Sequence record: MT446394.1
DNA: 40,001 nucleotides
Source: Escherichia virus TH20
Reading direction: 5' to 3' (one strand)
The position numbers were made by a program, and so were the translations under genes. The notes under the pieces were generated by a model. The model was not told the origin of the DNA, did no database searches, and was given only the letters and a program-made list of their open reading frames with translations. Every line of letters starts with the position of its first letter. The stretch's first letter is position 1. Of the stretch, positions 2,317-38,828 are shown piece by piece.

Positions 2317-2385
2317 ACTTAAAGTCCTTGTTATTAGTCTTTCACTTAAAGTCTCTTTGGTCTTTCACTTGGAGTCTTAGACCTT

Positions 2386-2408
2386 GAGTCCTATAGTGAT
2401 AATTAAGT
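2386..2408 (-). promoter_or_regulatory. Phage-RNAP promoter-like site (variant TTAATTATCACTATAGGACTC) about 70 nt upstream of the RNAP gene
   Basis: CACTATAGG core on minus strand, +1 G at 2391; differs from window consensus at -10 and +3 to +6. Confidence 0.45.
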
Positions 2409-2413
2409 CAGAA

Positions 2414-2674
2414 TCACTTGAATATCAGTGGGTTAGCGTGAAGATGGCTGAAGTCACCATGAGTCGTGTGCTTGATGGTTGACCGTTGGTCTATCGCCGT
2501 CCAGCCTGAGACTAAAAGTTTACCATCGTCAGTGATTGGTCGTCCACCATACGCCAGACACATCAGTTCGGACTTATGGCCCTCAGCCATCATGCGGCGC
2601 TGTAAGAACATGTCACGCTGCGCTTGCTCAACACGGCTACGGCTAGAGGGTTTGTTAGTGTATACGGTTTTCAT
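2414..2674 (-). CDS. Hypothetical early protein, 86 aa
   Basis: ATG at 2674 overlaps stop of upstream ORF (TAATG); last ORF of the early operon before gene 1; no family recognised. Confidence 0.5.
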   Translation of the reverse strand: MKTVYTNKPSSRSRVEQAQRDMFLQRRMMAEGHKSELMCLAYGGRPITDDGKLLVSGWTAIDQRSTIKHTTHGDFSHLHANPLIFK

Positions 2675-2871
2675 TACAGTTTGCTCCCAAGAGTTGCTAT
2701 ATCCCAGACGTTCGCTAAGTTGCGCATGAATCGTCCGTTAGGTTGACGTACAGTCCAGCGACCCAGACGTACATAGTTAAATTTGTAGACTTTACGCGCT
2801 TTGTTGATGTCTCTCACCAGCACGTAGGTGATAAGTCCATAGCCGAAGATACCCAGAAGTATCCAGCTCAT
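2674..2871 (-). CDS. Hypothetical early protein, 65 aa, hydrophobic N-terminus then basic tail
   Basis: ATG start overlapping upstream stop (TAATG); N-terminal WILLGIFGYGLITYVLV looks like a TM helix. Confidence 0.5.
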   Translation of the reverse strand: MSWILLGIFGYGLITYVLVRDINKARKVYKFNYVRLGRWTVRQPNGRFMRNLANVWDIATLGSKL

Positions 2872-2960
2872 TAGAATGACCCTCGCTTGATTGCGTCAAG
2901 AAGGCCCCAAGCTATCAGGAAGATGACCGGAGACAGGCATACCCAGTAACCTATATTCAT
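2871..2960 (-). CDS. Hypothetical small hydrophobic peptide, 29 aa
   Basis: Hand translation MNIGYWVCLSPVIFLIAWGLLDAIKRGSF; TAGGAG 6 nt upstream of ATG; stop overlaps next start; below track size cutoff. Confidence 0.3.
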   Translation of the reverse strand: MNIGYWVCLSPVIFLIAWGLLDAIKRGSF

Positions 2961-3030
2961 AGTTAACTCCTATCAATGTAAGTGAAAATCTTTGAGGCCA
3001 CCTATCAGTCGATGACCTCTCGTCTATCAC

Positions 3031-3823: not shown

Positions 3824-4134
3824 AATTATATCCTCTCAGTTGTTAGTGACTATCAGTCAGAGCCTTCAGATGTAGACTCAAAGACTCTGTAGTTAGTCGC
3901 TATCGGCGCACATTAAGAGTTTATCCAGATTGTTAAAGAGCGTTGAGGTCGTCAACCTCCGAGGTATTCGGTAGTTCCTAACCTTGTCTGTCACCGCGCT
4001 ATAGGTAGTGACTTAGTATCCGACAACCAGACCTTCTTCACTCGGTGAAGCCCGACCTCTCAATTTACTCTTAGTGAGGTGCTTAGAGTGTACCTGCTGC
4101 CAGTCCTTGGTAGCGTCTTGCTGCTTGGTGAATC

Positions 4135-4164
4135 ATACTACTTTAAGTCGTTACTGCTTGTCAA
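4135..4164 (-). promoter_or_regulatory. Candidate host sigma70 early promoter (T7 A2/A3-like): TTGACA, 18-nt spacer, TAGTAT
   Basis: -35 at 4164-4159 and -10 at 4140-4135 on minus strand; flanking AAGTAGACAGCCTGATAAGTC resembles the T7 early promoter region as I recall it. Confidence 0.35.
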
Positions 4165-4276
4165 CTACTTTCTGTCATCTGCCTGTTGTTCGTATGACTT
4201 ATCAGGCTGTCTACTTAACCGGGATGACCCGGCGTCTTCACTATCCGGTTGTTGCCGTGTCGTGTTGATGGAAGCT

Positions 4277-4305
4277 ATTAGGCCCTAGTCTGGACCTATA
4301 GTCAA
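4277..4305 (-). promoter_or_regulatory. Candidate host sigma70 early promoter (T7 A1-like): TTGACT, 17-nt spacer, CCTAAT
   Basis: -35 at 4305-4300, weak -10 at 4282-4277; overlaps a degenerate phage-promoter-like CTATAGG element. Confidence 0.25.
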
Positions 4306-4417
4306 TAGGTAATTTGAAATAATATTGATTGAGCTATCGTCGGCCCCATGGTGTAAGAGGATATAGTCTTTGACTAACATGTCTTTGACCTTAAGTCTAT
4401 AGCCATTGTGTCTATTA

Positions 4418-4485
4418 ACTGTAGGTTTAGACTGTAGGTAGCGGCATTACCGATGGTAGATGACTGTAGGTAGTTAGACTGTAGG
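4418..4485. repeat. Array of four CCTACAGT octamer repeats (minus-strand sense), left-end side of predicted terminal repeat
   Basis: ACTGTAGG on plus strand at 4418, 4431, 4463, 4478; analogous in position to the CCTAAAG arrays of T7. Confidence 0.6.
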
Positions 4486-4499
4486 TAGTGACTCAAGGT

Positions 4500-4689
4500 C
4501 TGATACAGATAGAGACTCAAAGACAGACCCATAGTCCCAACCTATCGTCCTTCCCTAAGCCATAGCCTCTACCTATCGTTGACCTGAAGTCTTTACCAGC
4601 GGTCAAACCTTATGATAGACTGGGGTAGGGCCTTTGGTCTGGACTGAAAGAGGGCCTATGGGGAGACTTGAGGTTCTTGAACTGTGAGA
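4500..4689. repeat. Predicted direct terminal repeat (single collapsed copy); physical left terminus near 4689 on the minus strand
   Basis: Minus-strand TCTCACAGTTCAAGAACC at 4689-4672 matches the conserved left-end start of T7/T3; distal boundary (about 4500) is a guess from similarity to the T7 repeat end. Confidence 0.35.
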
Positions 4690-5381: not shown

Positions 5382-7145
5382 CTAGTGGAACGTAACGTAT
5401 GACCCTAGTCCAAGCTCGTCGTCCGTATCGTGAGTTACCCGGACCCCATTGTCCCAGAACTCAGTGTGGATGGACTCGAAGCCTTTCCGTGGGTTCTCCA
5501 TCTGTTCCTCCAGCCACTCCTCAGTGACTTCACGTTCGCCTTTGTTGGCATCCTTAGCCATAGACTCAACGAAGAACTGTACACCGATAGCTAGCGCATC
5601 AAGTCGGTCATCGTGTGCCAAGGCCCCACGTTCACGAGAGATACGTGTCATCTGGTAGAAGAGAGAGTAGATAGGGTTACGAACACCATCCTTATCAGAG
5701 GCCGACTGGTAGTCTTGGACGATAGCAGCAGCGTTAACGATAAGTCGGTGAGACCCCATGATAGGCTCCAGAACGTCACAGATGCGGAGTTCTTTCTGAC
5801 CCTTACTCTTCACTTCAGTTACAGCCGCAGGATGGATACGGGCCGCTACAGGCTTGAATAGCTCAAGGTACATACCATCACCGAAGTTACCCTCAATGAC
5901 GTATTCGTTGACCTTCCACTTACGACCAATCTTAGCCAGCGCTTCAAGCGTAGAGTCTTCATAACCACCCCGCATACCACCAACTTCCATAGCGAAGATG
6001 TAGCCGTTGAGCTGGTACAGTACCGCATAGCCAGTTTCATCCTTACCACGACCACTAGGGTCAATGACCAGAATCTTCTGGGTGTACGAACTGAAGGCAG
6101 AACCTACAGTCTGATACGTGTGGTATGAGTCACCCATGAGTCCAACGTTAGGAACGTCCTCACGCTTGTTCTGAGGGTTTGGCAGCCATTGGTAGACCAT
6201 TGGGCTGGACGCTGGGTCCAAGTCGGCTACGATAAGGTCACGGAGCTTCAGAGGGTACTTCTCAGCATCACTTAGGTTCGGGTTAAGCATGAACTGTAGA
6301 GCGAAGCCGGCTTTACCATAGGACAGCTCACGTTCCTTCAGGTCAGTATCGTCGAATCGAACTTCATCGGTCGGACGCCAGTAGAAGGCCTCAGGGTCCT
6401 CTTCAAGCTCTGCCTGAAGCATAGGAGCCAGACGGTCTCCGTAAGACTGCCAGTCCTTCCTGTCGCGTGGATAACGAGCAGGCCAGATAGTAGTGGTGTA
6501 CCCACGGCCTTCCAACTCACGATACAAGGTCATCTCGTTCTGAGGAGTACCCAGATAGATGATCGTACCTCCCGGCTTCAGGATAGCGTCGAACTCTTTC
6601 ACAAGCTCTGACAGACGGTCTCGTGCGGCCTGAGTCGCTGAGTTGTTTGGAACCTCCACGTCGTCGGCAATCAGGATGTCGGCACGACTACCAGTCAACT
6701 GACCAGTGATACCAACGGACTTAACCGAAGGTGAGTGGTCTGGCTTGGCTGGTCCAACATCGAAGCTGATAACCGCATCTCGCTGCCCCTGCTTAGGTTT
6801 GAGCTCCTGAAGCTGAGGCATGAGGTCGATGATTCGCTTGATGAAGATGGAGTTAGCATCGGCTCGTTCCTTTGAGGCCGACACAATCATGAACTTCAAG
6901 TCTGGGTTGTTCCATAACTTCCAGACCACGAAGGCACACGTAATGAAGGACTTCCCGATACCACGGAACGCTTGTAGGATGAAGCGCCTGTTGCCCCCAG
7001 ACGATAGTTTCTTCGCCATGTCAATCTGACAGCGAGTCGGGACTGGGAGTGACAGAGCTTTCCACAGGACGAACAGGAAGAACACGAAGTCTGCCTTCAT
7101 ACGGGCAGTCATTAGCGCCTGACGCGCCACTAAATCTTTACTCAA
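5382..7145 (-). CDS. Terminase large subunit (T7 gp19-like), 587 aa
   Basis: Co-linear with T7 gp19 ([39 protein letters not shown]); start is TTG at 7145 with AAGGAGG 6 nt upstream, overlapping spanin stop. Confidence 0.97.
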
Positions 7146-8147: not shown

Positions 8148-8255
8148 AAAACCTCCAGTTTAAAGCGGGTCGTCCGTGACCCAAAGTTGTTACCATAAGT
8201 TGGTCAGCGTGTAGTTAGCCTCTACCCCCTTCCACACACGCCGAAGAGGTTTTTT

Positions 8256-10805
8256 TTAAATGGTTGCTATTTGCCACCGTCGATCATAGTAATGGGAGAA
8301 TCCGCTATACGTCAAAGTCATATGAACAATAGCCATTGATATTGATGCTGACGGGCAGCTGACACGGATGAATGTTTGTCCGCCTCTAACTAATTTCTGC
8401 ACATTAAACCCTGACAGGCTTTTATCCCCGGCATCAAGATTACTCCATAAAGCCCCCGATGCTACGTTGGACTCGCTACTACCAGACATACTAAACATCA
8501 AACGCCCTCCAGCCTCTCTACCACCAAGTCCATTTTTGTTTACGGGTATGATTGACATTTCCCCGGCAAGGAAGCACGCACCATACCTTGATTCTTCACC
8601 GACAGTGGTTAGCAGAATGTCTACCGCTCTGTTCCACGGAAGTATGAATGTCGCCTGCTCGGTTTTTACTTCATTAAAATACGCGTCAGCTGTCACATTT
8701 ATTGACGAAAGAGTTACGCCGTCATAGGAGTTACGCCCTTCTAGTGGTGCATGGCCATATACCCTATTTCCTGCTCTGACGCTTCGGATTCTGGTGTCTG
8801 CTAATCTTGAGGCGTCAGCAGCTTTAACGAATCTGAAATTATCTCCTAAAACCAGAGAGTTACCGTAAGCATTAACGTTTCCTGACGTATTTTTGTTTAT
8901 TAAGGCAATATGGTAATCCGCCTTAACATAACCGGAGTCCAGCACAATACTTCCATTCGGCATTCTTGCCTCGCTTGTCGGCATTTCAATGAACCGAGTG
9001 ACACCAGTGTTCATTGAACTTTGAATCCAACATGACAATCCCTTAAGGGTGAACTTAAACTGGTCATCTGTTTCTGCATAATCAGAGAAATCAATACCCA
9101 CAGTGCCGTTTATGCCCTCGATACCCATGCCGTCTATTGTTACGGACCGCAACTGCCCACCTACACGATGTGGTCGTATACAACCATCAGCGGCGATATT
9201 TGACGCAGTTACATACATGACAGGGTATCCACCAGCTACCGGTTCGTACGTACTTCTGTCTATGGAATAACCCCAGAGAAAGCCATCGTCGCAGTGGTGC
9301 GCCCATATAGAATTAATGTTGGTGCTGGTATTTCCACTAAGAGCAATGCCATACTTGCAATCGTACATATAGATGTTTTCTATTGTACTGACGAAAGTAA
9401 GCGCCGGTAGCGCGAATTTATAATGATAGAACTCAACATTACGAATCGTGCACAGTTTACCACCACCACCCGATAATTCGGACCCACTTATCATCAACGG
9501 GCATCCAACATAATCTGCGTCAGCATTTCTGAAAGCAATGTTTTCAACAGAAAGGCTATGGCCCCACGAGGTACTTACGAACCCACCAGTTGTCGATGTG
9601 TATATAATGCTTTTACGGGGAGAGTCACCGATAAGGCTAAGCATTACCCCATCCCATCTATACGCGCTAATGTCAATCTGTGTGCTGCCCATATAGATTG
9701 GCTGTTCGATTAATAAAGGAATATTGTGCGCAATACTTGCGGTATACGCAGCCAGCATCGCGGCCCCGTCGTTATGGGTTCCGGAAAGGTTGGCAGCCCC
9801 CATGCTTGGCGCTTTAGGATATGGAGTACCCTGAATGGTGCTGCCGACGATATATGGAGCATCCATCCATGCGCCAAACATTTTAGGAGTAATTCCCCGA
9901 ACGTTTGATAAGTCCCTTTTCCAGCGCTTACCTCCACTAGTAATTATAACAACGCCATTATCATCATTAGTTGTGGAATCTGCTAAGTCCGCATAGAACC
10001 ACCCACCACCAGAATCACCAGACTCATTTGGTGCAATTGATGTTGTATGTTTTTCTACAAAAATGCGCTGGCCATCAACATCAGGTTCAATAGTTCTTAA
10101 TGTTGATATATCATCGCATTTGCCGATTAACTTAAATCCATCGCTTTTATTTAATTGACTCCTTAATGAAGCATCACCTACACTAACCCACGCACCTACT
10201 CCAATCCCACCGGAAGTTTCAGGAGTTGAACCAGCAGGAACGTTCTTTGGAAGAGTACCATCCCAGCGGTAATAATCACCATCCTCTTCCCATAGCAGGA
10301 CCGTGTTCCATGTTGTAACGTTGAAGCCTTTCTCGAAGGAGCGACTGGTAATATAGCCAATTCGACCAGCTTCCTTGATACTCGCAGCTATTCCTCGTGC
10401 TTCGTCCTCGCTATCCTTAGCGTTGCTAGCAGAGCTACCAGCAGCAGCGGCATATTCCTTCGCTAAGTCAACCGTTTGGTCTCGACCTTCTTCTGCAATA
10501 TGGATAGCCTGAAGCTCTGCATTGGTCAGGTCACTAGCTGTCAACACTGAGCCATTCCTGAAGTCTACCACTAAGTCAGTTCCAGTCTGACGGTGAATAC
10601 GAACGATGTCGAAACCTGATTGGTCAACCAGCATCTCAATCATCGTTGGATTAAGGAATCGGTAATCTCGACCAGCTTCCAGTACACGGTTCAGGGCAGG
10701 GTTAGAGCTATTCACCAGCGTAACAACAACAAACGTTCTGGCTAGGTAGTCGAACTCAATCCTGTACTGAGTGTTTCCTGAAGGGAATTGTGTAATCGTG
10801 GACAT
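8256..10805 (-). CDS. Tailspike: T7 gp17-like N-terminal anchor fused to a depolymerase-like beta-helix body, 849 aa
   Basis: N-terminus FDYLARTFVVVTL...VDFRNGSVLTASDL resembles T7 gp17 1-150; remainder is Gly/Ser/Thr/Asn-rich as in pectate-lyase-fold capsule depolymerases; AAGGAGG upstream. Confidence 0.9.
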   Translation of the reverse strand: MSTITQFPSGNTQYRIEFDYLARTFVVVTLVNSSNPALNRVLEAGRDYRFLNPTMIEMLVDQSGFDIVRIHRQTGTDLVVDFRNGSVLTASDLTNAELQAIHIAEEGRDQTVDLAKEYAAAAGSSASNAKDSEDEARGIAASIKEAGRIGYITSRSFEKGFNVTTWNTVLLWEEDGDYYRWDGTLPKNVPAGSTPETSGGIGVGAWVSVGDASLRSQLNKSDGFKLIGKCDDISTLRTIEPDVDGQRIFVEKHTTSIAPNESGDSGGGWFYADLADSTTNDDNGVVIITSGGKRWKRDLSNVRGITPKMFGAWMDAPYIVGSTIQGTPYPKAPSMGAANLSGTHNDGAAMLAAYTASIAHNIPLLIEQPIYMGSTQIDISAYRWDGVMLSLIGDSPRKSIIYTSTTGGFVSTSWGHSLSVENIAFRNADADYVGCPLMISGSELSGGGGKLCTIRNVEFYHYKFALPALTFVSTIENIYMYDCKYGIALSGNTSTNINSIWAHHCDDGFLWGYSIDRSTYEPVAGGYPVMYVTASNIAADGCIRPHRVGGQLRSVTIDGMGIEGINGTVGIDFSDYAETDDQFKFTLKGLSCWIQSSMNTGVTRFIEMPTSEARMPNGSIVLDSGYVKADYHIALINKNTSGNVNAYGNSLVLGDNFRFVKAADASRLADTRIRSVRAGNRVYGHAPLEGRNSYDGVTLSSINVTADAYFNEVKTEQATFILPWNRAVDILLTTVGEESRYGACFLAGEMSIIPVNKNGLGGREAGGRLMFSMSGSSESNVASGALWSNLDAGDKSLSGFNVQKLVRGGQTFIRVSCPSASISMAIVHMTLTYSGFSHYYDRRWQIATI

Positions 10806-10851: not shown

Positions 10852-10874
10852 GTTTCCTATAGTGATAGTTTAGT
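10852..10874 (-). promoter_or_regulatory. Phage-RNAP promoter upstream of tailspike gene (phi17 position): ACTAAACTATCACTATAGGAAAC
   Basis: 23-mer overlaps gene 16 stop; followed in the leader by hairpin GGAGGC-N10-GCCTCC (10831-10852) and the RBS. Confidence 0.7.
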
Positions 10875-14761: not shown

Positions 14762-17044
14762 TTACTCCTTACCGATTAGTACGTTTGCGATACCCTCCAA
14801 TGAGACGTCATTGTACATCCCTCCGCGCTTCTCGATGTTGGCCTCTCGGTCAGCTCGACGTTTGTCACCAGCAGCTTTAGTCCCGACTATACGCGCTCGC
14901 TTGTTAGCGTCAAGTTCTGCCTGAGCGTATGCGGCATCTTGTGCCTTCTGCTGTTGTTCGCGGTAGAGTTTACCTACAAGTTCTTTATCGTAGCGAATAC
15001 GAATAGTCCCTGTAGCGTCTTGGAGGAAGATAGAGCCATTCTGTTCAACAACGGACAACTGAGAGTTCACTACCCAAGGGTTGGCCTTAATGAGCTGCTT
15101 ACGAGCGGTGTCGATAATGTCTCGACCAACCTGCCACGACTCTGGGTTATCCCCGACCATAAGCTGGTGCTTGGACACCATGCCGATGGACTTACCGTCC
15201 GAACCTTCAGATTGGAACGTTACGGTGTTCTCATTCAGCCAGCGTTGAGTCTGCTGAGTTGCAGCGTCAGCGTTACCTGTACGATAGTACCATGAGTCCC
15301 ATACCTTACGAGCACTTGCGTCCAGAGACGTTGGTAGACGAGACAACTTGGTGTTCTTGGAGTCGTTCTTCAGCTCCTGCCACGCCTTGTCTGACTCCAT
15401 GCGCATCTCACGGCTTTGACTTGCAGCTTGCTTATCAGCTTCAATCATCGTCTGAGGGTCCAGACCCATCTTGTCCATCTGGTCAAACGTAGAGAACAAC
15501 TGAGCTTGGTCAGGATACAGAGCAGCGAAACTTGAAGGGTCCTGAGTGTAGGCACGACGAAGAGATTCGAAGCGTTTCATCTTGTCTGGGTCGTACTGCC
15601 CACGGATGACAGCAGCTTGCCACTCACCAGCGGCGTCCTGAGTCAGCGTCTGGAAGGCATTACGGAACGGACCGTTGTTAGTGTCAGCTCTTAACAATGC
15701 CACCTTCTGAGCGTCCTTAGCAGCCTCAGGGATGTCCATCTGGTCAATCTGCTGTAGCTTAGCAGACGCATAGTTGTTCATGTCTGAACGCTTGAACTCT
15801 CCTGTAGCTTCAGATACCGGAAGGTCCTCATAGTTGGTGGACACGTTGTCACCAGCCAGACGTCGCTGATAAACTTGGTCAATGACCAGTTGCTTGTTCT
15901 GGGTCTGGATTAACTTCGTGTTCTCCTTTGCCTGTTCAGCAGACTTACGCTTTACCGCTTCCAGTAGTGTGACTTCGGCGTTAATAAGCATCTGGCGCTG
16001 AGGAGTGAGTTCTTCACCGGGTTGAAGCTGGTTGTTCTGCTCCTTGAGTTTTTGAATCTGGGCCAGACCGATGGTTGGGTCATCCTGAAGAATCGCAGAC
16101 TGAACGCCTAACGCCAAGTCTTCCTGATACTTAGCCACCAGTTTATACTCAGTACCTTGGGCCTCAACCATAGCAGCATTGAAGACGTCAGGTCCTACAA
16201 TCTCTTCGATGGTAGCGTCAACACCATTAAGGGTGATACGCTCGCCACGGACTTGCTGTAGGAAGTTTGAGCCTCCTGACTTCTGGATTGCGTCACGTAC
16301 CGTCTGGGCGATGACCTCTCGTGCTCGCTGGTCCGAAGGGATAGCAGCAGTTGTTAGACCATCCCGCAGGTAGGCCATGAAGGTCTTTCCAGACTCAGGA
16401 GAACGCATCAGGTCCCCATCGTTAAGGAACGAGTTCATCTCAATACGAGTGTTCAACATTGCTGTCTCTTCAGACTGCTTACTGAAATACTTATTGAAGG
16501 ACCCGTAGATAGCGATGTTTCTGTCCGTGATGTTATCGTTGAATCCACGCTGGAAGAACTCGTCGGTAGGGTTAATACCCGCCTCTTCAGCATAGGACTT
16601 AGCGGCATCCTGAAGTCGCTGGTGGCGATACTCTTCCATGTCCTGACGTGTACGGAACTCACCGTTCTGAATCTTAACGTTAATCTCGTCGTCTACAGCA
16701 AAGGCGGCATTACGACCAGTCTTGACTCGAAGTGCTTCCATAGCGTAAGGGTCGTCCTGATACAGCAATGTGCCGTTCTGGATAGCCTCACGTCTCTGCT
16801 GAGGTGTCAGTTTGCGGATAATCTCGTTAGACCGCTCGTCAGCTCTTGTCTTCTCATCGTCTTTGAACTGCTTGTACAATCCGGTCCCAGACTCAACGAA
16901 GTTGGTTAACGCACGAGCCAGCCCGGAGTCCCCAGTAGGAGCCTGAACGTTGGCTGCTTGATAGTTGACGGCGATAGTTTTACCCGGCGCTCTGCCGCGA
17001 CCCATAGTCCGATTAGCCAGAGCTGATTCAATATTACTAGCCAT
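14762..17044 (-). CDS. Internal virion (core) protein (T7 gp15-like), 760 aa
   Basis: Size and position between gp14 and gp16; GAGGAGG upstream. Confidence 0.9.
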   Translation of the reverse strand: MASNIESALANRTMGRGRAPGKTIAVNYQAANVQAPTGDSGLARALTNFVESGTGLYKQFKDDEKTRADERSNEIIRKLTPQQRREAIQNGTLLYQDDPYAMEALRVKTGRNAAFAVDDEINVKIQNGEFRTRQDMEEYRHQRLQDAAKSYAEEAGINPTDEFFQRGFNDNITDRNIAIYGSFNKYFSKQSEETAMLNTRIEMNSFLNDGDLMRSPESGKTFMAYLRDGLTTAAIPSDQRAREVIAQTVRDAIQKSGGSNFLQQVRGERITLNGVDATIEEIVGPDVFNAAMVEAQGTEYKLVAKYQEDLALGVQSAILQDDPTIGLAQIQKLKEQNNQLQPGEELTPQRQMLINAEVTLLEAVKRKSAEQAKENTKLIQTQNKQLVIDQVYQRRLAGDNVSTNYEDLPVSEATGEFKRSDMNNYASAKLQQIDQMDIPEAAKDAQKVALLRADTNNGPFRNAFQTLTQDAAGEWQAAVIRGQYDPDKMKRFESLRRAYTQDPSSFAALYPDQAQLFSTFDQMDKMGLDPQTMIEADKQAASQSREMRMESDKAWQELKNDSKNTKLSRLPTSLDASARKVWDSWYYRTGNADAATQQTQRWLNENTVTFQSEGSDGKSIGMVSKHQLMVGDNPESWQVGRDIIDTARKQLIKANPWVVNSQLSVVEQNGSIFLQDATGTIRIRYDKELVGKLYREQQQKAQDAAYAQAELDANKRARIVGTKAAGDKRRADREANIEKRGGMYNDVSLEGIANVLIGKE

Positions 17045-17055
17045 TAGTCCTCCTC

Positions 17056-17643
17056 TTAGCTATGACCTGTAGGTGTGCCTTTAGCAGCACTAATTGGTGC
17101 AGCACCACCAGAGCTGGACGCTCCAGCGATTGACTTACCAGCGGCGTAGCCTTGCATCCCGGCGTTAGCAACATTAAGTGCATGAGCCAGTGGGCTGGTC
17201 TTGATGATTTTACCTTGACCACGGATAGCAGACTTGGTGTTCTCAATGTTGGCGATACGGTTCCCAAATATAGCCGCATAGTCACGGTTGTAGCTTTCGG
17301 TAATCCCTGCTCGCTCCTTGACCGTATCTCCTTCGACCTGACGTTCAATCCTGTCCATAGAGTTACCTTCCAGACCGGACTCAGCCACCGCAGCTCTGAC
17401 CATACCCTGATTGCGGATACCGTTTAGCGTGGTCTCTGTCAGTTCAGCCATCTGCTGCTCCTTCAGGTCTCGCTCCTGCATCTTCAGGTTGGCGTCAGAG
17501 TAGTTCATCTGCTTAATCATCTCCTGAGACTGACGGTTCTGAGCATCAATTGCTGCACCTTCGGCCTTGGCCTGCTGGGATGCGGACATAGTGGCCCCGG
17601 CTACAGCCATGATCCCTAGACCGATGGATACTGGTTCACACAT
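17056..17643 (-). CDS. Internal virion protein (T7 gp14-like), 195 aa
   Basis: GNSMDRIERQVEGD...YNRDYAAIFG resembles remembered T7 gp14; GGAGGT upstream. Confidence 0.85.
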   Translation of the reverse strand: MCEPVSIGLGIMAVAGATMSASQQAKAEGAAIDAQNRQSQEMIKQMNYSDANLKMQERDLKEQQMAELTETTLNGIRNQGMVRAAVAESGLEGNSMDRIERQVEGDTVKERAGITESYNRDYAAIFGNRIANIENTKSAIRGQGKIIKTSPLAHALNVANAGMQGYAAGKSIAGASSSGGAAPISAAKGTPTGHS

Positions 17644-18037
17644 GGTTCACCTCCAGATAGTTGATAGCGTTTCTAAGCAACTGGACGTCATCCTTCAGCT
17701 TGCCTATAGCTTGATTGCAGTTGGTACATAGCAGCCCTCTAACCTTTCCAGTTGAATGGCAATGGTCTACCGCTAGTCTTCCTACAGACTCTGTACCATG
17801 ACAAATAGCACATGTTCCACCTTGCTCACGAAGCATTTTATCATACTCCTCAGGTGTTATTCCGTATCCTTTCTTCAGGTTATACCTCCTGTTGTGCTCT
17901 GGGGTTCTATCCTTCCGTATCTTGGACCAACAGCTTCTGCAATGAGGCTTGCGCCTGTTCGGGTCTTTCTTGGTGGCCTGTTTGTGAAACTCAGTGATTG
18001 GTTTCTCCAGACCACAAGTTAAACAAACCTTGGTCAT
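17636..18037 (-). CDS. HNH endonuclease (endonuclease VII-like), free-standing, between genes 13 and 14
   Basis: CAICH...LAVDHCHSTGKVRGLLCTNCNQAIG; likely start ATG 18037 (AAGGAG upstream); track start 18100 is GTG inside gene 13. Confidence 0.8.
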   Translation of the reverse strand: MTKVCLTCGLEKPITEFHKQATKKDPNRRKPHCRSCWSKIRKDRTPEHNRRYNLKKGYGITPEEYDKMLREQGGTCAICHGTESVGRLAVDHCHSTGKVRGLLCTNCNQAIGKLKDDVQLLRNAINYLEVNHV

Positions 18038-18039
18038 CT

Positions 18040-18495
18040 TTACTCCTTGGTGATTGTGAATAGAATGAATACTTCTCCAGTCACTGGACTTCTGGTCCAC
18101 TTATCGTCGTGGAACTTAGCGCCTATTGACTTGAGAAACCGGATGTGGGACGCATTGCCTTCCCAGACGTAGTTCCATAGTACCGGATAGTCCTCCAGCA
18201 TCTTGTCACGATACTCCATGATTCTCTCACGGAACTCTCGCTTACCTTTAGGTGGGAGACGCTCGGTCATTCTGGTTGTCAGGAACCAAACGTTGTCACC
18301 TTGGTTGCCGCCATAGGCGTAAATATCCCCAGTAGCGTTAGTTAAAACCACAGATGAAGACGTTAGGTGTGCTTGCAGCCTTTCAGTGAGACCCTCAGTG
18401 GTCCCGTAGTTGGCTTTACACTCCTCTAAGTCGTCATCTGTAAGTTGTGCAGCAGCGTGCCAAACGTCTACATCTGTAGCCTTGCGAATATACAT
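18040..18495 (-). CDS. Virion assembly / internal protein at the gene 13 position, 151 aa
   Basis: Assigned by position downstream of the phi13-type promoter; no motif recognised. Confidence 0.5.
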   Translation of the reverse strand: MYIRKATDVDVWHAAAQLTDDDLEECKANYGTTEGLTERLQAHLTSSSVVLTNATGDIYAYGGNQGDNVWFLTTRMTERLPPKGKREFRERIMEYRDKMLEDYPVLWNYVWEGNASHIRFLKSIGAKFHDDKWTRSPVTGEVFILFTITKE

Positions 18496-18514
18496 AAAGT
18501 CTCCTTATAACCTT

Positions 18515-18564
18515 AAGGGCCTATAGTCCCTATAGTGATAGTTAAGGTAAATCTATAGGCCCTT
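18515..18564 (-). promoter_or_regulatory. Perfect 12-bp inverted repeat (AAGGGCCTATAG / CTATAGGCCCTT) enclosing the phi13 promoter; candidate RNase III site
   Basis: Arms at 18515-18526 and 18553-18564, 26-nt loop; sits between tail tube B stop and gene 13. Confidence 0.45.
18525..18547 (-). promoter_or_regulatory. Phage-RNAP promoter (phi13 position): CCTTAACTATCACTATAGGGACT
   Basis: Near-consensus 23-mer, +1 G at 18530. Confidence 0.7.
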
Positions 18565-18571
18565 CAATAAG

Positions 18572-20929
18572 TTAGACGGAACGAGCTTTCTTAGCGTATG
18601 ACGCCTCCCAGCCACACCCAACGATGGACACTGGGGTAGGATAGTCTGACTCTAAGGTTAGACTCGTGGTTAATGCGTTACCATTCATAGCGAAGCGATA
18701 CTGACCGTCCCCAATGTTGGTAGTCCCGATGGTTTGCTGACCAAGGGTGTACCCATTAAAGGTGTTAACGAACTCCCGCTCACCGTTTCTGACAATGAGT
18801 CTAAGAGCGCCAGTGTCCTTGTAGTTGACCCAAGCCCGACGAAGTTGTAGGCGTCCAGTGTCTTCAGACTGAGTGCCCCTCTCGTCTTCAATCTTAATCA
18901 GGAACCGTGAGAACTTGTAGGACATCAGATAAGACCGTCCGATGAACACTGTACGTCCTGACCAATCGCCATTGAGCACAGCCACAGTTGAGATGTCGGT
19001 CAATTCACCAAGGTCCACGTAGGCACCCTGACTGTCAATCAGATAGTACCGACCGGGAGACGGAGCGTTTCCACCATAAGCAGAACCAATGTCAACCGTA
19101 GTCTTATAGGTGTCAGCGTTGTATGAGCCAATTGGTATTACCATAGACACCTTGGAGTCAACGTGGAGTCTATATGGCTCTAACGGAAAGTCAGTTGCCT
19201 CCTTGATGAACTTAAGGTGCTCAAGGTCCACTCCTCCTTGGTGCTGACGAACAATGAACATGGTAGAGCCAATCGACGCAGACGCCAGAATCTTATCAGC
19301 TTTAGGGAACTCCCAGTGCGACCAAGAGGCTTGAAGCTGTACGCCGTCCTTAAACAAGAACTTGTAGATGTAGATTCTGTTGTATGCACCTGTAGAGTTG
19401 ACGCAGATGTAGTTCTCAGTCCCTGTCCCCTGAATGTCAAACACCCCGTTAGGGATATAGGACAGTACGTGTCCAGTGGTATCATCGGCATCCTTCACGT
19501 CAGACACATCTGCTACAGCGAAGTATCTCTTAATGCTGGTGAATGACCCACGAGGCGCTGAGAAGAAGACTGAGCGTCCTACAGCGAACGGTCTGGCATT
19601 ATCACCTAAGGCAAACTCTGAGCCTACATCAAGCTGGATAGACTTCGAGGTAAGGACCCCTGAGCTTGTCATCACGAACTGCACCTCATCTGACCAAAGT
19701 AGTAGCTGCTCGCTAAACGGAACGGCATACTTAAGGATTGAGATTCTAGGGTGACTTACAGCTACGTCAATAGGATCATCATCACTCAGTGTAGCCACAC
19801 TCTTAGGGAAGAACGCAAAGTAGCTGGCTGAACGGCTCATGATTACGTTCTCACCTGACAAGAACCCTAGCCTGTTCCTGTAGAAGAACACATCGTTAAT
19901 CGTAGCATCCACGAAGCTAGGCATAGGGTTTATGTCATCATTACCAGCGCCACGCTTGGACCAGTCCAGAGTCTTGAACTCAAAGGATCCATCAGACTTT
20001 CTTACCAGAGCATGCGGCATTGTGGTGACATCGAACCCAGTTACCACTCCCGGCTCTACTGTCTCCTTCCACGTCTTAGTGTTGGAGTCATACATCACGT
20101 AATATTCATCGGCGCTACTGTTGGTCTCACCTTGAATCTTAATGATGTACCCATTTGGAGCCGCAAGGGGCAACTTAGAGATTGTTTGCACCGTGTCGAG
20201 GACTGGGCTGATTAGTTGGTTAGCGTAGCCATCCTCAGTCTCCACTGAGTTAATGTCAGTCCCTGAAGGGGCAGTGATTAACAGGAATCCAGACCCAAGG
20301 TCGAACGTGAAGGTAGGATAGGCAGCAACAAGAAGGTCTCTCAGAGCTGCACCGATAGCCTGAGCATCAACCTTAGGAGGGTCATTCTCGGCATCATTAC
20401 CTGCTGGTAGCTTATGCGAGACCTTAACGCCACCGTTGATTCCCACCTTAAGGGTGCGACCATACTGTCCACCGCGCAGGTTAATTAAAGCGCGTGCTTT
20501 ACGATTATAACCAGAGTGTGACTTCTCGCTTCCACCTTTAACGACAACCTTACGGTTAACGACGAATGTATAGTCTGCCACAGTAACGACACGGATGTCA
20601 TCTCGCGGGTTGGACGACTTAACGTAGTCTACCGCACCGGAAACTGAGTATTGATTACCGCTCAAGTCAACTACCTGAATGTTGGTCCCGTTGAACACGA
20701 TGTAATACTGCTCCTGCTCATCACGGTTAATCAGGTGGAACTTGGGGTTACTCCCAACGTCGATGTTAAGACGTCGCTTGAAGACTGTAGGTGGGCGCTT
20801 CTGGAGGCCATCACTCTCGGATGACCAGCAGTTAACTTGAGCCTCGCCTTGGTCTGAGAACCTCAGGATGTCAGGCTGTTGGCTAATGCCACCCTTAAGA
20901 TTTTTTATGCTTTGCGTAATAAGCGGCAT
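18572..20929 (-). CDS. Tail tubular protein B (T7 gp12-like), 785 aa
   Basis: Size and position; AAGGAGA upstream of ATG 20929. Confidence 0.95.
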   Translation of the reverse strand: MPLITQSIKNLKGGISQQPDILRFSDQGEAQVNCWSSESDGLQKRPPTVFKRRLNIDVGSNPKFHLINRDEQEQYYIVFNGTNIQVVDLSGNQYSVSGAVDYVKSSNPRDDIRVVTVADYTFVVNRKVVVKGGSEKSHSGYNRKARALINLRGGQYGRTLKVGINGGVKVSHKLPAGNDAENDPPKVDAQAIGAALRDLLVAAYPTFTFDLGSGFLLITAPSGTDINSVETEDGYANQLISPVLDTVQTISKLPLAAPNGYIIKIQGETNSSADEYYVMYDSNTKTWKETVEPGVVTGFDVTTMPHALVRKSDGSFEFKTLDWSKRGAGNDDINPMPSFVDATINDVFFYRNRLGFLSGENVIMSRSASYFAFFPKSVATLSDDDPIDVAVSHPRISILKYAVPFSEQLLLWSDEVQFVMTSSGVLTSKSIQLDVGSEFALGDNARPFAVGRSVFFSAPRGSFTSIKRYFAVADVSDVKDADDTTGHVLSYIPNGVFDIQGTGTENYICVNSTGAYNRIYIYKFLFKDGVQLQASWSHWEFPKADKILASASIGSTMFIVRQHQGGVDLEHLKFIKEATDFPLEPYRLHVDSKVSMVIPIGSYNADTYKTTVDIGSAYGGNAPSPGRYYLIDSQGAYVDLGELTDISTVAVLNGDWSGRTVFIGRSYLMSYKFSRFLIKIEDERGTQSEDTGRLQLRRAWVNYKDTGALRLIVRNGEREFVNTFNGYTLGQQTIGTTNIGDGQYRFAMNGNALTTSLTLESDYPTPVSIVGCGWEASYAKKARSV

Positions 20930-20938
20930 ATGCTCTCC

Positions 20939-21166
20939 TTAAATCATACTCATTAGGACGTATCCCTCAGCGATGTTACCAACGTCAGCAATGTGGACAA
21001 CCTTACGTGCTACCTGTTGTCCAGTATACCCGTTGTCCCACTCATTCAGGATAAGCCAGTCGCCAACCTTAAAGTCCCGGTCGTTAAGTCTCAGCTCTGC
21101 TGTCTTTAGACCTAGTTGTACCGGGCCAAAGTGCTGGCGGTGAATCTTCAGGTTGTGACTAGCCAT
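20939..21166 (-). CDS. Small ASCH/DUF3850-like (PUA-fold) protein, 75 aa, between tail tubular A and B
   Basis: Pattern GxKTxExRLNDRDFKVGDWLxLxEWD...YTG as I recall for DUF3850; ATG overlaps gene 11 stop (TAATG), GGGAGGG upstream. Confidence 0.55.
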   Translation of the reverse strand: MASHNLKIHRQHFGPVQLGLKTAELRLNDRDFKVGDWLILNEWDNGYTGQQVARKVVHIADVGNIAEGYVLMSMI

Positions 21167-28538: not shown

Positions 28539-28726
28539 TAGCTTTCTCCTTGGGATTCAATGTGATTGGTCTTTCCACACAGTCTGCACTGAGTTACTTT
28601 GGGCTTGCCATCCTGCGTGCAGTAGACAAGTACCCAATCTGGATGTTTGCACCGCGACTGATGTAGCTCTTCACGCCTGCGTGTTTCTTCAGCGAACTCT
28701 TCGTATGCGCTGTCATAATGACCCAT
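28538..28726 (-). CDS. Hypothetical small protein with Cys/His-rich zinc-ribbon-like motif, 62 aa
   Basis: SRCKHPDW...CTQDG...QCRLCGK; ATG 28726 with AAGGAG upstream, overlapping HNH stop. Confidence 0.45.
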   Translation of the reverse strand: MGHYDSAYEEFAEETRRREELHQSRCKHPDWVLVYCTQDGKPKVTQCRLCGKTNHIESQGES

Positions 28727-28992
28727 TAGTGACACTCCTTCTTAACAAGTTTGCGCTCGCGGTTCGTCTTAATGACGTGTTCGCGCTTTGGAATACACTG
28801 TAGGTGCTCTATGTTGCAGCACCCACGGTTCAAGCACAAATGGTCTATCTCATAGCCATCTGGTATAGGCCCACGCTTCTGCTTCCACACCCATCGGTGG
28901 AACATGAAGGCGAACTTGTTGCCCTTCCTGTAGCTTCCCATGGGTGTGGAAGCGTAGGGTCTGGGTTCGAGGGTCAATGACACTCTTTCCAC
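28726..28992 (-). CDS. HNH endonuclease, free-standing, after the DNA polymerase gene
   Basis: GYEIDHLCLNRGCCNIEHLQCIPKREH; start uncertain (GTG 28992 inside DNAP end, or ATG 28941). Confidence 0.7.
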   Translation of the reverse strand: MERVSLTLEPRPYASTPMGSYRKGNKFAFMFHRWVWKQKRGPIPDGYEIDHLCLNRGCCNIEHLQCIPKREHVIKTNRERKLVKKECH

Positions 28993-31145
28993 GTTGGTCC
29001 AATCTTACCCTCCGTATCAAGTTCACACTTGAAGTTATAGAAGCGTCCGACCTCACGCATCGCCTCTTGAGCAATACGGACGACATCTTCTGCTATCTCC
29101 TGAGTACGACACGCTATCTGCAATTCATCGTGAATCCAAGCCATTAGCGCAAAGTCTCCGTCCCATCCGTTACCGTAACCAGCCTCTTCAAGTTTCTTCT
29201 CAGTAAGTACCATCCAGTGCTTACAGACTACCGCACCATCACCCTGAAGTAATGCGTTCAGTGCTGAGTGTGGAGACCGTATGTGGATACGGCGACCGTC
29301 AAGTCCACGCAACCAACGGCGTTTCCACTTAACGATGTTCTCTCCGTCCACCCACTTAGAGTCTGATATTAACGTATTACTCACAGCTTCCCTGAGGTCC
29401 TTGATGGCTGGTGTGCCCTCAATGAATTTCTTCATGAGAGCTGAACCTTCCTTCTTACCACCGCCGACTATCAGTCCAATCTTAGCGGCCCCTGCACCAT
29501 ACAGGAACGCATAGATGAACGTCTTAGCGTTGTTACGGAAAGCATCATGGTCGTGGTTCGACTTATCGCGTGGGACGTTAGGTGCTAACCCAGCGTTTAC
29601 TGCGTTGGCCCAGTGGATGTCACCTTCGACCACAGTCTTCGCATATGCACCACCATCAAACGGAGCCGCTCGGTTCCCCAGACAACGAAGCTCAAGACCT
29701 GAGGCATCCACACCTACTTGAATCCAAGGGTCTGGCTTACCGTCCTTCTTGTTCCACGCTGCACCGAAAGCACCACGGCAAGTCTCACCATACGGAGCAC
29801 CGTTAGCAGGGACCTGAGCCATGTTTGGTGAACTATGAGTCGCACGTCCGGTTACTGCCCCGCATGGGTTGATTGAACCGTGCATACGTCCGTCTGGACC
29901 TACAAGTTTCAACCATGCGTTCTTACCTTCAGCAGCCTGCCCGATTCTCTTCTGGACTACCAGATACTCACGGACCAGCTCTACGCAAGCCTGAGCCTCT
30001 GCGTCTGGTAACTTAACGTGTTCTAACGTCTCGTCATCGACTACAGGTTTCCCAGTGTCAGTGAAGTCCACAGGCTCCCATCCACGCTCTATCAGGACTT
30101 TCGCTAAGTGGTCGCCGCTTCCCGGATTAAACTCAACGTAAGTGATGGGCGTGAATGGTGCCCCCTCCATCGTGTCTCGTGAGTCGAACTCGCAAGGCTC
30201 CAGACCTAAGCGTTGTGCTTTGTTCTTCGGTTTCTTAAAGATGCCACCGACCTTAGGATACACGACTCGCGGATACTTCGGAAGGTCCTTACCTGTCCGT
30301 GGATGCCTGAAGAACTCCTTGCCTCCCTTTGGTGCATACCAGCTACCGAAAGTCGAGCGCAGCTTGTCCAGCAACTCCGCACGTTTGACAGTGAGTTCAC
30401 GATATAAGCCTTCGACCATCTCGGTGTTCATCGGATAGCCGTTACGTTCCATCTTCGCACAGGTCCACGCAGCATCATGTTCCAGACGCAACGCATAAAT
30501 CTGTTCGAAAGCGAACTGTTCAGACTGGAAGTAATACTTGTCAGTCAGGAACTTCTTGAACAACGCCAGTGTGACCACAACGTCTTGAACGTTATAGTCC
30601 AGCATCTCCTGAGATGGGAACAACCATTCGTCCCCAGCCTTATATTCGATACCCTCGGCCTTGCACTTGGCAACGTAATCATGTTTGTACTCACCCTTCA
30701 TCTCACCGAGACGATAACCCCAAGCCTCAAGAGACTGACGTCCCATCATCTTAGGTGGCAGACGACCCGCTTTCACCGCGCCCATGTCTGAGAACTTAAT
30801 GTTTGGATACATCAAGCGGCCCAGCACCAAGGTATCAATCATCTTGTGTTTCGGGAAGTTAAAACGTTTCCCAAAGTACAGACGCTTCAGCTTGTCTATA
30901 GCCGGGACGTCATAGTTGATACCATTATGGAAGACAAGCATACCATCAGGTGATGCGGCAATCTCTTCCACCTTCTGCACATACTCTTTGAAGCCACCGA
31001 CGATACCGACCATCGGAGCTACCCCATACTTAAGGGTCTCATTCGACTCGGCATTAATCAGGACCCCACAGTGAAACTGGGACACGGTGTCAAGGAGACC
31101 GTTGGTCTCGATGTCCGAACCCCAAATATCCTTAAGGTCAAACAT
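28974..31145 (-). CDS. DNA polymerase (T7 gp5-like), 723 aa
   Basis: Co-linear with T7 gp5 end to end; real start ATG 31145 (GGAGGA 6 nt upstream); track start 31181 is GTG inside the stem-loop. Confidence 0.97.
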   Translation of the reverse strand: MFDLKDIWGSDIETNGLLDTVSQFHCGVLINAESNETLKYGVAPMVGIVGGFKEYVQKVEEIAASPDGMLVFHNGINYDVPAIDKLKRLYFGKRFNFPKHKMIDTLVLGRLMYPNIKFSDMGAVKAGRLPPKMMGRQSLEAWGYRLGEMKGEYKHDYVAKCKAEGIEYKAGDEWLFPSQEMLDYNVQDVVVTLALFKKFLTDKYYFQSEQFAFEQIYALRLEHDAAWTCAKMERNGYPMNTEMVEGLYRELTVKRAELLDKLRSTFGSWYAPKGGKEFFRHPRTGKDLPKYPRVVYPKVGGIFKKPKNKAQRLGLEPCEFDSRDTMEGAPFTPITYVEFNPGSGDHLAKVLIERGWEPVDFTDTGKPVVDDETLEHVKLPDAEAQACVELVREYLVVQKRIGQAAEGKNAWLKLVGPDGRMHGSINPCGAVTGRATHSSPNMAQVPANGAPYGETCRGAFGAAWNKKDGKPDPWIQVGVDASGLELRCLGNRAAPFDGGAYAKTVVEGDIHWANAVNAGLAPNVPRDKSNHDHDAFRNNAKTFIYAFLYGAGAAKIGLIVGGGKKEGSALMKKFIEGTPAIKDLREAVSNTLISDSKWVDGENIVKWKRRWLRGLDGRRIHIRSPHSALNALLQGDGAVVCKHWMVLTEKKLEEAGYGNGWDGDFALMAWIHDELQIACRTQEIAEDVVRIAQEAMREVGRFYNFKCELDTEGKIGPTWKECH

Positions 31146-31160
31146 GGTTAATCCTCCGTT

Positions 31161-31205
31161 TAGTCTAATCATAAAGGCCACTCGATGTGAATGACCTTGA
31201 GTCTA
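31161..31205 (-). promoter_or_regulatory. Conserved stem-loop, candidate RNase III site upstream of DNA polymerase gene
   Basis: Second copy of AATCATAAAGGCCAC...ATGACCTTGAGTCTA. Confidence 0.4.
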
Positions 31206-33852: not shown

Positions 33853-34151
33853 TGTACACCACCAGCTCTACTACGACCAGATTCAGATGTGACAGGAGGG
33901 ACGCTTGATGCTGGCAGGACTTGAGGTTTATCCTCTACAATTTCCTCAAGATATTCATTTAAAACCCATGCTCCCCACATTCCGTCAGGCTGCGTGTTAG
34001 GACCCGCGCTACCGTGCTTGTAGTAGCCACGCTCGGAGGATTCTACCAGAGTAATGCCAAGCCGGGTTGATGGGTCTTTCACACATTTCGTAACGATAGT
34101 ACTTTTAGGCCACCCGTGGCGGCTAACTTTAAGTTTATATTTCTGAGTCAT
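33846..34151 (-). CDS. Hypothetical protein, 101 aa, inserted between endonuclease I and lysozyme genes
   Basis: ATG 34151 overlaps endonuclease I stop (ATGA), AAGGAG upstream; no T7 counterpart recalled; C-terminal half low complexity. Confidence 0.5.
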   Translation of the reverse strand: MTQKYKLKVSRHGWPKSTIVTKCVKDPSTRLGITLVESSERGYYKHGSAGPNTQPDGMWGAWVLNEYLEEIVEDKPQVLPASSVPPVTSESGRSRAGGVQW

Positions 34152-34603
34152 CACTTAACTCCTTTCTTCTTTGGAATGAGTATACCCGAAGGCAGACGTA
34201 CAGTCGCCTCTCGAAGCCACTCAACCGGGATGAACTTATCGGCATACTTATAGCCGTTCTTTTCGCACCATGCGCCATACGTGGTCGGAGACCCTTTGTA
34301 TAGCTTGGAGCGGGAACTTGAGAACACGAACCGGATGTCTAACTCTGGGTGCTGTTCTCGTACCAGAAGATGCTTCTTACGGTCATCACTATCGAAGATA
34401 CCTTTGGTCTCCACGATGATACCGTTAGGAAGGATAAAGTCCGGCGTGTAGAAGTGGTCCGAAGCAGGAACAACGTACCCAATCTTATATGCTTCATACT
34501 CTGCCTTGACTCCGTTCTTCTCGAGCCACTCTTGGTTCTTTGCTTCCAGTCCAGAGCGGTAAGTCCCGACTGCGTGTCCTCGTGATGCTGACCACTTAGC
34601 CAT
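34151..34603 (-). CDS. Endonuclease I, Holliday junction resolvase (T7 gp3-like), 150 aa
   Basis: FRSGLE, YTPDFxLPNGIxVETKG, SDDRKKHLLxREQHPELDIRxVFSSSRxKLYKGSPT match T7 gp3; real start ATG 34603 (GGAG upstream); track start is TTG. Confidence 0.9.
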   Translation of the reverse strand: MAKWSASRGHAVGTYRSGLEAKNQEWLEKNGVKAEYEAYKIGYVVPASDHFYTPDFILPNGIIVETKGIFDSDDRKKHLLVREQHPELDIRFVFSSSRSKLYKGSPTTYGAWCEKNGYKYADKFIPVEWLREATVRLPSGILIPKKKGVK

Positions 34604-38814: not shown

Positions 38815-38828
38815 AGCTCTCTCTCCTG

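Follow-up and report, generated by a model that had tools for sequence, protein, structure and literature searches.

A putative free-standing homing endonuclease gene of the DHHRN family between virion genes 13 and 14 of a Kayfunavirus

Gene 13.5 and its surroundings

The window, by which we mean the whole stretch of 40,001 nucleotides analyzed here (Escherichia virus TH20, record MT446394.1), is a complete, circularly permuted Kayfunavirus genome whose two ends overlap by about 800 bp; it is reverse-complemented with respect to Escherichia phage EcoDS1, to which it is about 95% identical. On its minus strand, an open reading frame of 133 codons runs from an ATG at 18037 to a TGA stop at 17636 (17636-18037) and translates as MTKVCLTCG...CAICHGTESVGRLAVDHCHSTGKVRGLLCTNCNQAIG...EVNHV, a product that includes the motif CAICH...LAVDHCHSTGKVRGLLCTNCNQAIG. 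The initial annotation had placed a CAICH-bearing gene at 17636-18037, and these coordinates proved exact. A longer start, at GTG 18100, is unlikely, since ATG 18037 is preceded five bases upstream by AAGGAG. Homologous proteins begin with M-x-K-x-C, in agreement with the ATG, and the EcoDS1 annotation uses the same start.

The family to which this frame, gene 13.5, had been attributed, endonuclease VII/HNH, is also the correct one: the protein is of the Endonuclease VII, or beta-beta-alpha-Me 'HNH-like', type. Residues 54-129 match the Pfam family Endonuclease_7 (PF02945) with an E-value of 2.2e-28 and 98 bits for a cut-off of 23.6, a score that places the predicted family membership far beyond chance. 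No second Pfam family matches the protein, and PHROG 2633, 'endonuclease VII', matches it at E 4e-45. In EcoDS1, the protein of gene 13.5 (YP_002003777 / ACF15821) is 100% identical and bears the RefSeq label 'endonuclease VII'.

Both neighbors are virion genes read from the same strand. On the left lies gene 13 (18040-18495), encoding an internal virion/scaffold protein (PF11090, E 1e-35), and on the right gene 14 (17056-17643), encoding internal virion protein B (PF24072, E 2e-45). Further out are gene 12, the nozzle gene (18572-20929), which lies upstream of gene 13 and matches its T7 Pfam family, and, downstream of gene 14, gene 15 (14762-17044), which has no Pfam match and was assigned by synteny with EcoDS1. 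The position between genes 13 and 14 given in the initial annotation is thus confirmed, as is its remark that T7 has no gene at this place: in T7, four bases separate gene 13 from gene 14, and nothing intervenes. Judged from its reading frame and family matches, gene 13.5 is a real and intact gene for a predicted Endonuclease VII-type nuclease, set between two virion genes.

The fit of the gene between its neighbors is tight. Its Shine-Dalgarno sequence, the AAGGAG mentioned above (18043-18048, minus strand), is read in the last codons of gene 13, whose TAA stop occupies 18040-18042. At the right junction (17636-17654, minus strand), the 3' end of the nuclease gene contributes a GGAGGTG (17648-17654) that acts as the Shine-Dalgarno sequence for gene 14, whose ATG (17641-17643) overlaps, in ATGTGTGA, the TGA (17636-17638) that ends the nuclease frame. 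A phage RNA polymerase promoter, phi13 (18525-18547, minus strand), identical to the phi13 feature of EcoDS1, drives genes 13, 13.5, 14, 15 and 16. A scan with the promoter consensus returned nine sites where none was expected, the next one downstream of phi13 on the same strand being located at 10854-10872. Between these two promoters, terminator and sigma-70 signals showed no excess over shuffled expectation, and gene 13.5 is therefore read within the late 13-16 transcript.

Two other features of the genome deserve mention. A T7-type endonuclease I, a Holliday junction resolvase, is encoded by gene 3 (34151-34642, minus strand; Pfam Phage_endo_I, E 2e-77). Two further cassettes, of HNH_3 type, are present in this genome and missing from EcoDS1, which adds to the signs of mobility described below. 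GC content over gene 13.5 is 0.46 vs about 0.50, a slight dip that is uninformative as a sign of foreign origin.

Conserved residues, predicted fold and nearest enzymes

An alignment of 51 homologues delineates two cysteine clusters and a catalytic core, all residues of which are invariant or at least 90% conserved. The first cluster, C5, C8, C33 and C36 (17930-18025, minus strand), forms an N-terminal Cys4 zinc repeat that aligns to the first beta4alpha2 repeat of Hpy99I and is a predicted DNA-reading module. The second, C76, C79, C104 and C107 (17717-17812, minus strand), is a Cys4 zinc site enclosing D91, H92, H94, R100 and N108, in near-invariant columns that also align with T4 Endonuclease VII. 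The Endonuclease VII pattern CX2-4C ... D-H-x-H ... R ... CX2C-N is found complete, as C76/C79, D91-H92-C93-H94, R100 and C104/C107-N108, and in the alignment the T4 equivalents of these residues are C23/C26, D40/H41/H43, R54 and C58/C61/N62. The D, H, R and N residues serve as metal ligands or general base, functions established for T4 Endonuclease VII and, by mutagenesis, for F-CphI (PMC6083498).

The AlphaFold2 model of the protein is confident (mean pLDDT 92.7). The predicted structure consists of a beta4alpha2 unit followed by a second unit that bears the beta-beta-alpha-Me motif, its two strands (89-92 and 99-103) leading into a helix (105-113). When the model was compared with the PDB using Foldseek, Hpy99I was the top match (E 5e-6 over 137 columns) and T4 Endonuclease VII the second, with an rmsd of 3.0-3.5 A over about 86 columns. 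Sequence profiles gave the same order: Hpy99I residues 75-198 align with query residues 3-135 (E 7e-17) and cover both zinc repeats, whereas T4 Endonuclease VII aligns through its residues 7-73 with query residues 62-123 only (E 2e-12), its residues 74-157 remaining unmatched. Hpy99I thus outscores the T4 enzyme and matches over the full length while the latter matches the core only, a ranking drawn from profile comparison.

Hpy99I is a type II restriction endonuclease (PDB 3FC3) whose architecture reads a specific duplex sequence and whose zinc repeats align with those of gp13.5. In its crystal structure with DNA, the first of two beta4alpha2 zinc repeats reads the major groove and the second holds the active site (PMC2699513). 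Since gp13.5 matches both repeats, it has the build of the part with which a specific endonuclease reads DNA sequence; the overall superposition with the model is poor (rmsd 12 A), and the relative orientation of the repeats is not fixed by it. We considered and rejected the idea that gene 13.5 encodes an Hpy99I-like type II restriction enzyme: it is flanked by the genes for gp13 and gp14, and the alignment begins at Hpy99I residue 75, leaving out the N-terminal beta-barrel. A methyltransferase partner is absent from the EcoDS1 gene list.

T4 endonuclease VII (gp49; PDB 1EN7, 2QNC), the junction resolvase of T4, has the catalytic core and the structural zinc site in common with gp13.5, at 32-34% identity. 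The T4 enzyme, however, has its motif at the N-terminus, ahead of a C-terminal domain, whereas that of gp13.5 is C-terminal (residues 54-129 of 133), preceded by an extra zinc repeat, and the T4 C-terminal domain is absent. This difference matters in light of the DHHRN family, which was defined from F-CphI and divided into two clades by Fang et al. 2018 (PMC6083498): a resolvase clade, whose members resemble T4 gp49 over their full length and have an N-terminal motif, and an endonuclease clade, whose members have a C-terminal motif and include Hpy99I, podovirus proteins and enzymes encoded by introns in T7-like phages. The podovirus members of this second clade, of putative homing or restriction enzymes, come from phages that also encode endonuclease I (PMC6083498). 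In gp13.5 we find both features of the endonuclease clade, the C-terminal motif and a T7-type endonuclease I in the same genome, and the EcoDS1 protein (ACF15821) is listed in Table S1 of that study with motif location 'C' (PMC6083498). F-CphI itself, from cyanophage S-PM2, has been shown experimentally to be a homing endonuclease in which the D, H, R and N residues are essential (PMC6083498). This founding member resembles gp13.5 in its C-terminal CxxC...DHxH...R...CxxCN arrangement, its size and its free-standing nature. It differs in its setting: its target, psbA of a T4-like cyanophage, lies beside a group I intron site, and the position at which it cleaves has been mapped, while the neighbors of gene 13.5 are virion genes 13 and 14.

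The same observations bear on whether the product is what its label says, a true Endonuclease VII, that is, a structure-specific resolvase or debranching enzyme that would clear branched DNA before packaging, as T4 gp49 does. The shared catalytic motif and core fold speak for such a function, and so do the RefSeq and PHROGs labels 'endonuclease VII'. A resolvase function is, however, already supplied by endonuclease I (34151-34642). With a T4 match confined to query residues 62-123, no T4 C-terminal domain and a C-terminal motif, gp13.5 falls into the non-resolvase clade of Fang et al.; its gene, moreover, is missing from most relatives (about 85% of the sample described below). Since the protein neither aligns over its full length with T4 Endonuclease VII nor is conserved across relatives, we rejected its assignment to the T4-type resolvase class, and consider a resolvase function very improbable.

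Occupancy of the 13|14 junction among relatives

A query of 2 kb spanning the locus found matches in 221 phage records, from which we drew an evenly spaced, non-exhaustive INPHARED sample containing 55 relatives with both flanks. The slot holds the allele of the present phage in two of these and a PSK1-type allele in three; two or three others retain short remnants, and about 47, the type phage K1F included, have an empty 13|14 junction. The junction is thus empty in about 85% of sampled close relatives, and it is empty also in ST66 and CR44b. A search of IMG/VR returned 42 loci, two of them with a close gene 13, and the slot survey is based on the INPHARED sample; among the IMG/VR loci from Kayfunavirus (gp14 at least 89% identical), 21 of 23 are empty, one (L026) carries a third allele and another (L028) a remnant. 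Orthologues are few: besides that of EcoDS1, only five of 50,697 phage records contain one (PDP351P4, vB_EcoP-101136BS1, Hafnia phage yong1/Ca, where it is ORF40, PDP21P1 and vB_VIPECLMC06), with proteins 89-97% identical. In EcoDS1 and these five, slot, length and junctions are the same as in the present phage, and nothing of substance differs. The paper on the Hafnia phage describes the gene as 'extra' vs phage ST31.

The scarcity of the gene weighs on another function proposed in the initial annotation, a terminase-associated HNH protein that would aid genome cutting during packaging. Some cos-type siphoviruses do use HNH proteins as packaging cofactors, and gene 13.5 is located among late and structural genes. 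T7-like phages, however, package with gp18 and gp19 alone. In the window, gene 19 (5382-7145) and gene 18 (further upstream, in the 7.6-8.2 kb region) lie some 10 kb from gene 13.5, and the protein matches Endonuclease_7 only, not the HNH type of cos-packaging phages. Moreover, the EcoDS1-like, K1F-like and Salmonella relatives that lack the gene are viable, plaque-forming isolates. On account of this distance, and of the absence of the gene from most plaque-forming relatives, we reject a packaging role, to which we assign hardly any probability at all.

Alignment of carriers with empty sites reveals a cassette with sharp borders. Carriers match empty sites up to and including the AAGGAG in the last codons of gene 13 and again from the start codon of gene 14 onward, and the left junction is common to all carriers. 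In 101136BS1, the ATG of the nuclease gene stands exactly where the gene 14 ATG stands in empty K1F-type sites. At empty sites, the end of gene 13 provides the Shine-Dalgarno sequence of gene 14, which in carriers is replaced by the GGAGGTG of the cassette. Presence/absence polymorphism at one locus and precise cassette boundaries, both expected of a homing gene, are therefore found together for gene 13.5.

Three alleles occupy this one slot: the EcoDS1 type, the PSK1 type (43% identical) and the L026 type (40% identical), carried by backbones that are about 95% identical, with gp14 at 89-97% identity. Remnants testify to decay: KM02 has a PSK1-type gene with an internal deletion, and in ZG49 a deletion has taken the 3' third of gene 13 together with the 5' two-thirds of the nuclease gene. 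Gene 13 itself exists within the genus as two alleles about 65% identical, and each of these has been seen with an EcoDS1-type nuclease, with a PSK1-type nuclease and with an empty junction, so that recombination breakpoints must lie immediately beside the cassette. Such breakpoints agree with a general pattern, in which nuclease genes are located at the borders of genetic exchange, beside essential phage genes (PMC10448857).

Use of the slot extends beyond the genus, to other genera of the Studiervirinae. Relatives at 45-53% identity reside in the same 13|14 slot in phiYeO3-12, in AP5 (vB_YenP_AP5) and in T7-like phages of Klebsiella, Erwinia and Rahnella; these gene 13.5 products also belong to the Endonuclease VII family and measure about 125-130 aa, and they form separate allelic lineages. 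The AP5 and phiYeO3-12 proteins are 74% identical, against 96-100% for the flanking genes. In further T7-like phages, other members of the family reside elsewhere: next to the gene for DNA polymerase or that for exonuclease, or within the early region.

A putative homing cycle and the start of gene 14

Sequence evolution within the cassette indicates constraint on the protein. Among seven carriers, dN/dS ranges from 0.06 to 0.20 for dS values up to about 1, and gp13.5 is therefore under purifying selection and not decaying in carrier lineages. A recent sweep was considered and dismissed: from one carrier to another, the nuclease gene is no more alike at the nucleotide level than the backbone, whose identity it tracks.

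The flank on the gene 14 side, in turn, contains a single tract linked to the state of the slot. In the first 30 nt of gene 14 (17614-17643, minus strand), mismatches between occupied and empty classes exceed those within classes by 3.67, a value reached in none of 5000 label permutations, which leave shared ancestry uncorrected. The six other bins tested, which serve as the sole control, show at most a weak excess (+0.57 at 90-120 nt, p about 0.02). The first 30 nt, which co-vary with slot state, thus constitute the only linked flank tract, and could represent a target, an immunity tract or a co-conversion tract; as the genomes compared are phylogenetically non-independent, the link is supportive and not proof. 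We also looked for a long co-conversion tract and discarded it: carriers and empty sites differ by 10-12 mismatches per 50 nt over the first 100-150 nt of gene 14, which the empty-vs-empty control attributes mostly to general hypervariability.

These data must be set against the main rival to a homing function, namely a domesticated or beneficial accessory nuclease. Such an enzyme would be kept for a benefit to the phage, such as degradation of host or competitor DNA or anti-defense, would spread by ordinary recombination and would leave its own empty site uncut. A dN/dS of about 0.1 sustained over divergences up to dS of about 1 is what such a nuclease would show, and strong purifying selection fits a nuclease benefiting the phage as well. 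Gene identity that follows the backbone is likewise compatible with it, since presence/absence and recombination could produce this pattern without nuclease-driven conversion. The authors of the Hafnia phage Ca paper speculated that the enzyme cuts host DNA, and one report (PMC13096335) documents side benefits of other phage homing endonucleases. A gene of general benefit sits poorly, however, with its absence from about 85% of the close relatives that infect the same hosts and with the repeated losses recorded by the remnants. The confinement of unrelated alleles to the same junction is predicted by site-specific invasion, not by general benefit, and the slot-linked flank amounts to 30 nt only. 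We therefore regard the accessory nuclease as unlikely, though less so than any other rival function considered here.

Our preferred reading, which we hold to be probable, is that a free-standing homing endonuclease of the DHHRN family is encoded by gene 13.5, the gene having settled in the Kayfunavirus 13|14 junction. Of the possibilities raised in the initial annotation, this is the one that holds, given a sporadic, precisely bounded cassette in a conserved junction and membership of a clade already predicted to consist of homing endonucleases. The comparative data, i.e. exact boundaries, three alleles, remnants, independence from the gene 13 allele, a dN/dS of about 0.1 and a 30-nt linked flank, all fit such a predicted element. 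From these sequence comparisons we infer that the enzyme cleaves at a specific site, where this target lies and that the inheritance of the gene is super-Mendelian. The identification is correct but ordinary, in that the gene was already annotated and its product already predicted to be a homing endonuclease. In the literature searched, gp13.5 and gene 13.5 appear in annotation tables only, with no report of cleavage, target site or homing cross, close homologues included.

A homing cycle consistent with these elements can be proposed. Gene 13.5 would be transcribed late from phi13 along with the virion genes, and would be translated from its own Shine-Dalgarno sequence within the end of gene 13, its own 3' end providing a new one for gene 14; through these two signals, the cassette would leave its essential neighbors undisturbed. 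In the protein, the first zinc repeat would read DNA sequence, by analogy with Hpy99I. The second would form the beta-beta-alpha-Me active site, with H92 as the probable general base, D91 and N108 as metal ligands, and H94 and R100 as further participants. During co-infection with an empty-junction relative, the enzyme would nick or cut the genome of that relative at or near the 13|14 junction, probably in or beside the first 30 or so nucleotides of gene 14. The break would then be repaired by recombination from the nuclease-bearing genome, and the gene would be copied into the recipient with a very short flank.

The linked tract shows a haplotype structure that partly follows the nuclease allele. 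Six of the seven EcoDS1-type carriers share the haplotype TGTGAACCAGTATCCATCGGTYTAGG, at the position of which all PSK1-type and L026-type carriers have CCAATT. Three empty loci nevertheless display a carrier haplotype: two (L021 and L022) have TGTGAACCAGTATCCATCGGTYTAGG and one (L014, probably ST31) has CCAATT. These could be either precise losses or cognate uninterrupted sites. L021 and L022 tell somewhat against the homing reading, since they blur the division into sensitive and immune alleles.

The start codon of gene 14 varies as well. The present phage, EcoDS1 and the whole set of 21 empty sites compared have ATG, the five remaining EcoDS1-type carriers (of seven) have GTG, and every one of the five carriers and remnants of PSK1 or L026 type has ATT. 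A more distant empty locus (L008, gp14 73% identical) also has GTG. One possible explanation, which we put forward tentatively and consider rather doubtful, is that the recognition site of the nuclease overlaps the translation start of gene 14, an essential ejectosome gene, and that carriers avoid being cut themselves because their first ten codons, and even the start codon, have been recoded. If this were true, the initiation region of a core virion gene would be the scene of an arms race driven by a selfish nuclease, and gp14 dosage could change as a side effect.

The direct value of the finding is small. On gene 13.5 of T7-like phages, the 'endonuclease VII' label is best understood to mean 'putative DHHRN-family homing endonuclease', and should suggest neither a resolvase nor a packaging factor. 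To our knowledge, none of the DHHRN enzymes of T7-like phages has been characterized so far. The gene is dispensable, which is useful for engineering or minimizing Kayfunavirus genomes for therapy. Moreover, the 13|14 junction, with its three alleles, remnants, empty sites, two gene 13 backgrounds and 30-nt linked flank, offers a compact natural system for the cycle of homing endonuclease gain, replacement, decay and loss in T7-like phages. The one mildly new lead is the link between slot state and recoding of the gene 14 initiation region, start codon included.

Gene 14 start codon and gene 13 alleles

The state of the slot between genes 13 and 14, that is, whether the junction carries a nuclease gene, a remnant or nothing, co-varies with the start codon of gene 14 (window 17641-17643, minus strand, and the homologous position in the comparison loci L001-L054). 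This codon is ATG in the window, in EcoDS1 and in all 21 of the 21 closely related empty loci, and GTG in a more distant empty locus (L008) as well as in the other five carriers of the EcoDS1-type nuclease allele. In all carriers or remnants of the PSK1 and L026 alleles (5/5) the position reads ATT, and the annotated gp14 is shorter, beginning at Met12.

The adjoining gene 13 of Kayfunavirus (window 18040-18495, minus strand; loci L009-L029) exists as two alleles that are about 65% identical, despite which gene 14 remains more than 90% identical across these loci. The K1F-type allele of gene 13 extends about 17 nt into gene 14. At 2423-3022 of the IMG/VR contig L028, a deletion has cut off gene 13 after about 108 of its 151 codons and fused it to the final third of a PSK1-type nuclease gene; on this sequence, loss of the gp13 C-terminus therefore seems to be tolerated by a viable phage, unless the truncation is an assembly error. 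The phi13 promoter upstream of gene 13 is flanked by a perfect 10-nt inverted repeat, GGGCCTATAG ... CTATAGGCCC (window ~18514-18559, minus strand), which is identical in EcoDS1 and is possibly an RNA processing site or hairpin.

Further HNH genes in TH20

An HNH_3 gene (28726-28992, minus strand; PF13392, E 3e-19), found in the window and lacking in EcoDS1, immediately follows the DNA polymerase gene 5 (28974-31181, minus strand). The polymerase now terminates in ...aaagagtgtcatTGA. The closing sequence of the HNH ORF, aaggagtgtcacTAATG, exactly matches EcoDS1 from the original 3' end of the polymerase gene into the start of the gene that follows. The HNH gene is a cassette insertion bringing a recoded duplicate of the final four polymerase codons (KECH).

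A second HNH_3 gene (34596-35036, minus strand; 146 aa, E 2e-15, PHROG 1872/59), likewise missing from EcoDS1, lies between gene 2.5 (35036-35734) and gene 3, encoding endonuclease I (34151-34642, minus strand). Together with gene 13.5, the putative homing endonuclease gene of the slot, these make three free-standing HNH-superfamily genes in the TH20 genome, all of them wedged between essential genes.

Other features relative to EcoDS1

Gene 17 (ORF 8256-10805), which encodes the tail fibre, is for the most part replaced in comparison with EcoDS1, the unmatched stretch being 8215-10174. An ORF of 75 aa with a DUF3850/ASCH domain (20939-21166, minus strand; E 1.5e-19), located between tail genes 11 and 12, is common to the window and EcoDS1 and has no counterpart in T7. 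Both ends of the window (1-2588 and 38818-40001) contain the same part of the RNA polymerase gene region, ~800 bp corresponding to EcoDS1 3845-4651. The window, a circularly permuted assembly, therefore exceeds a single genome in length.
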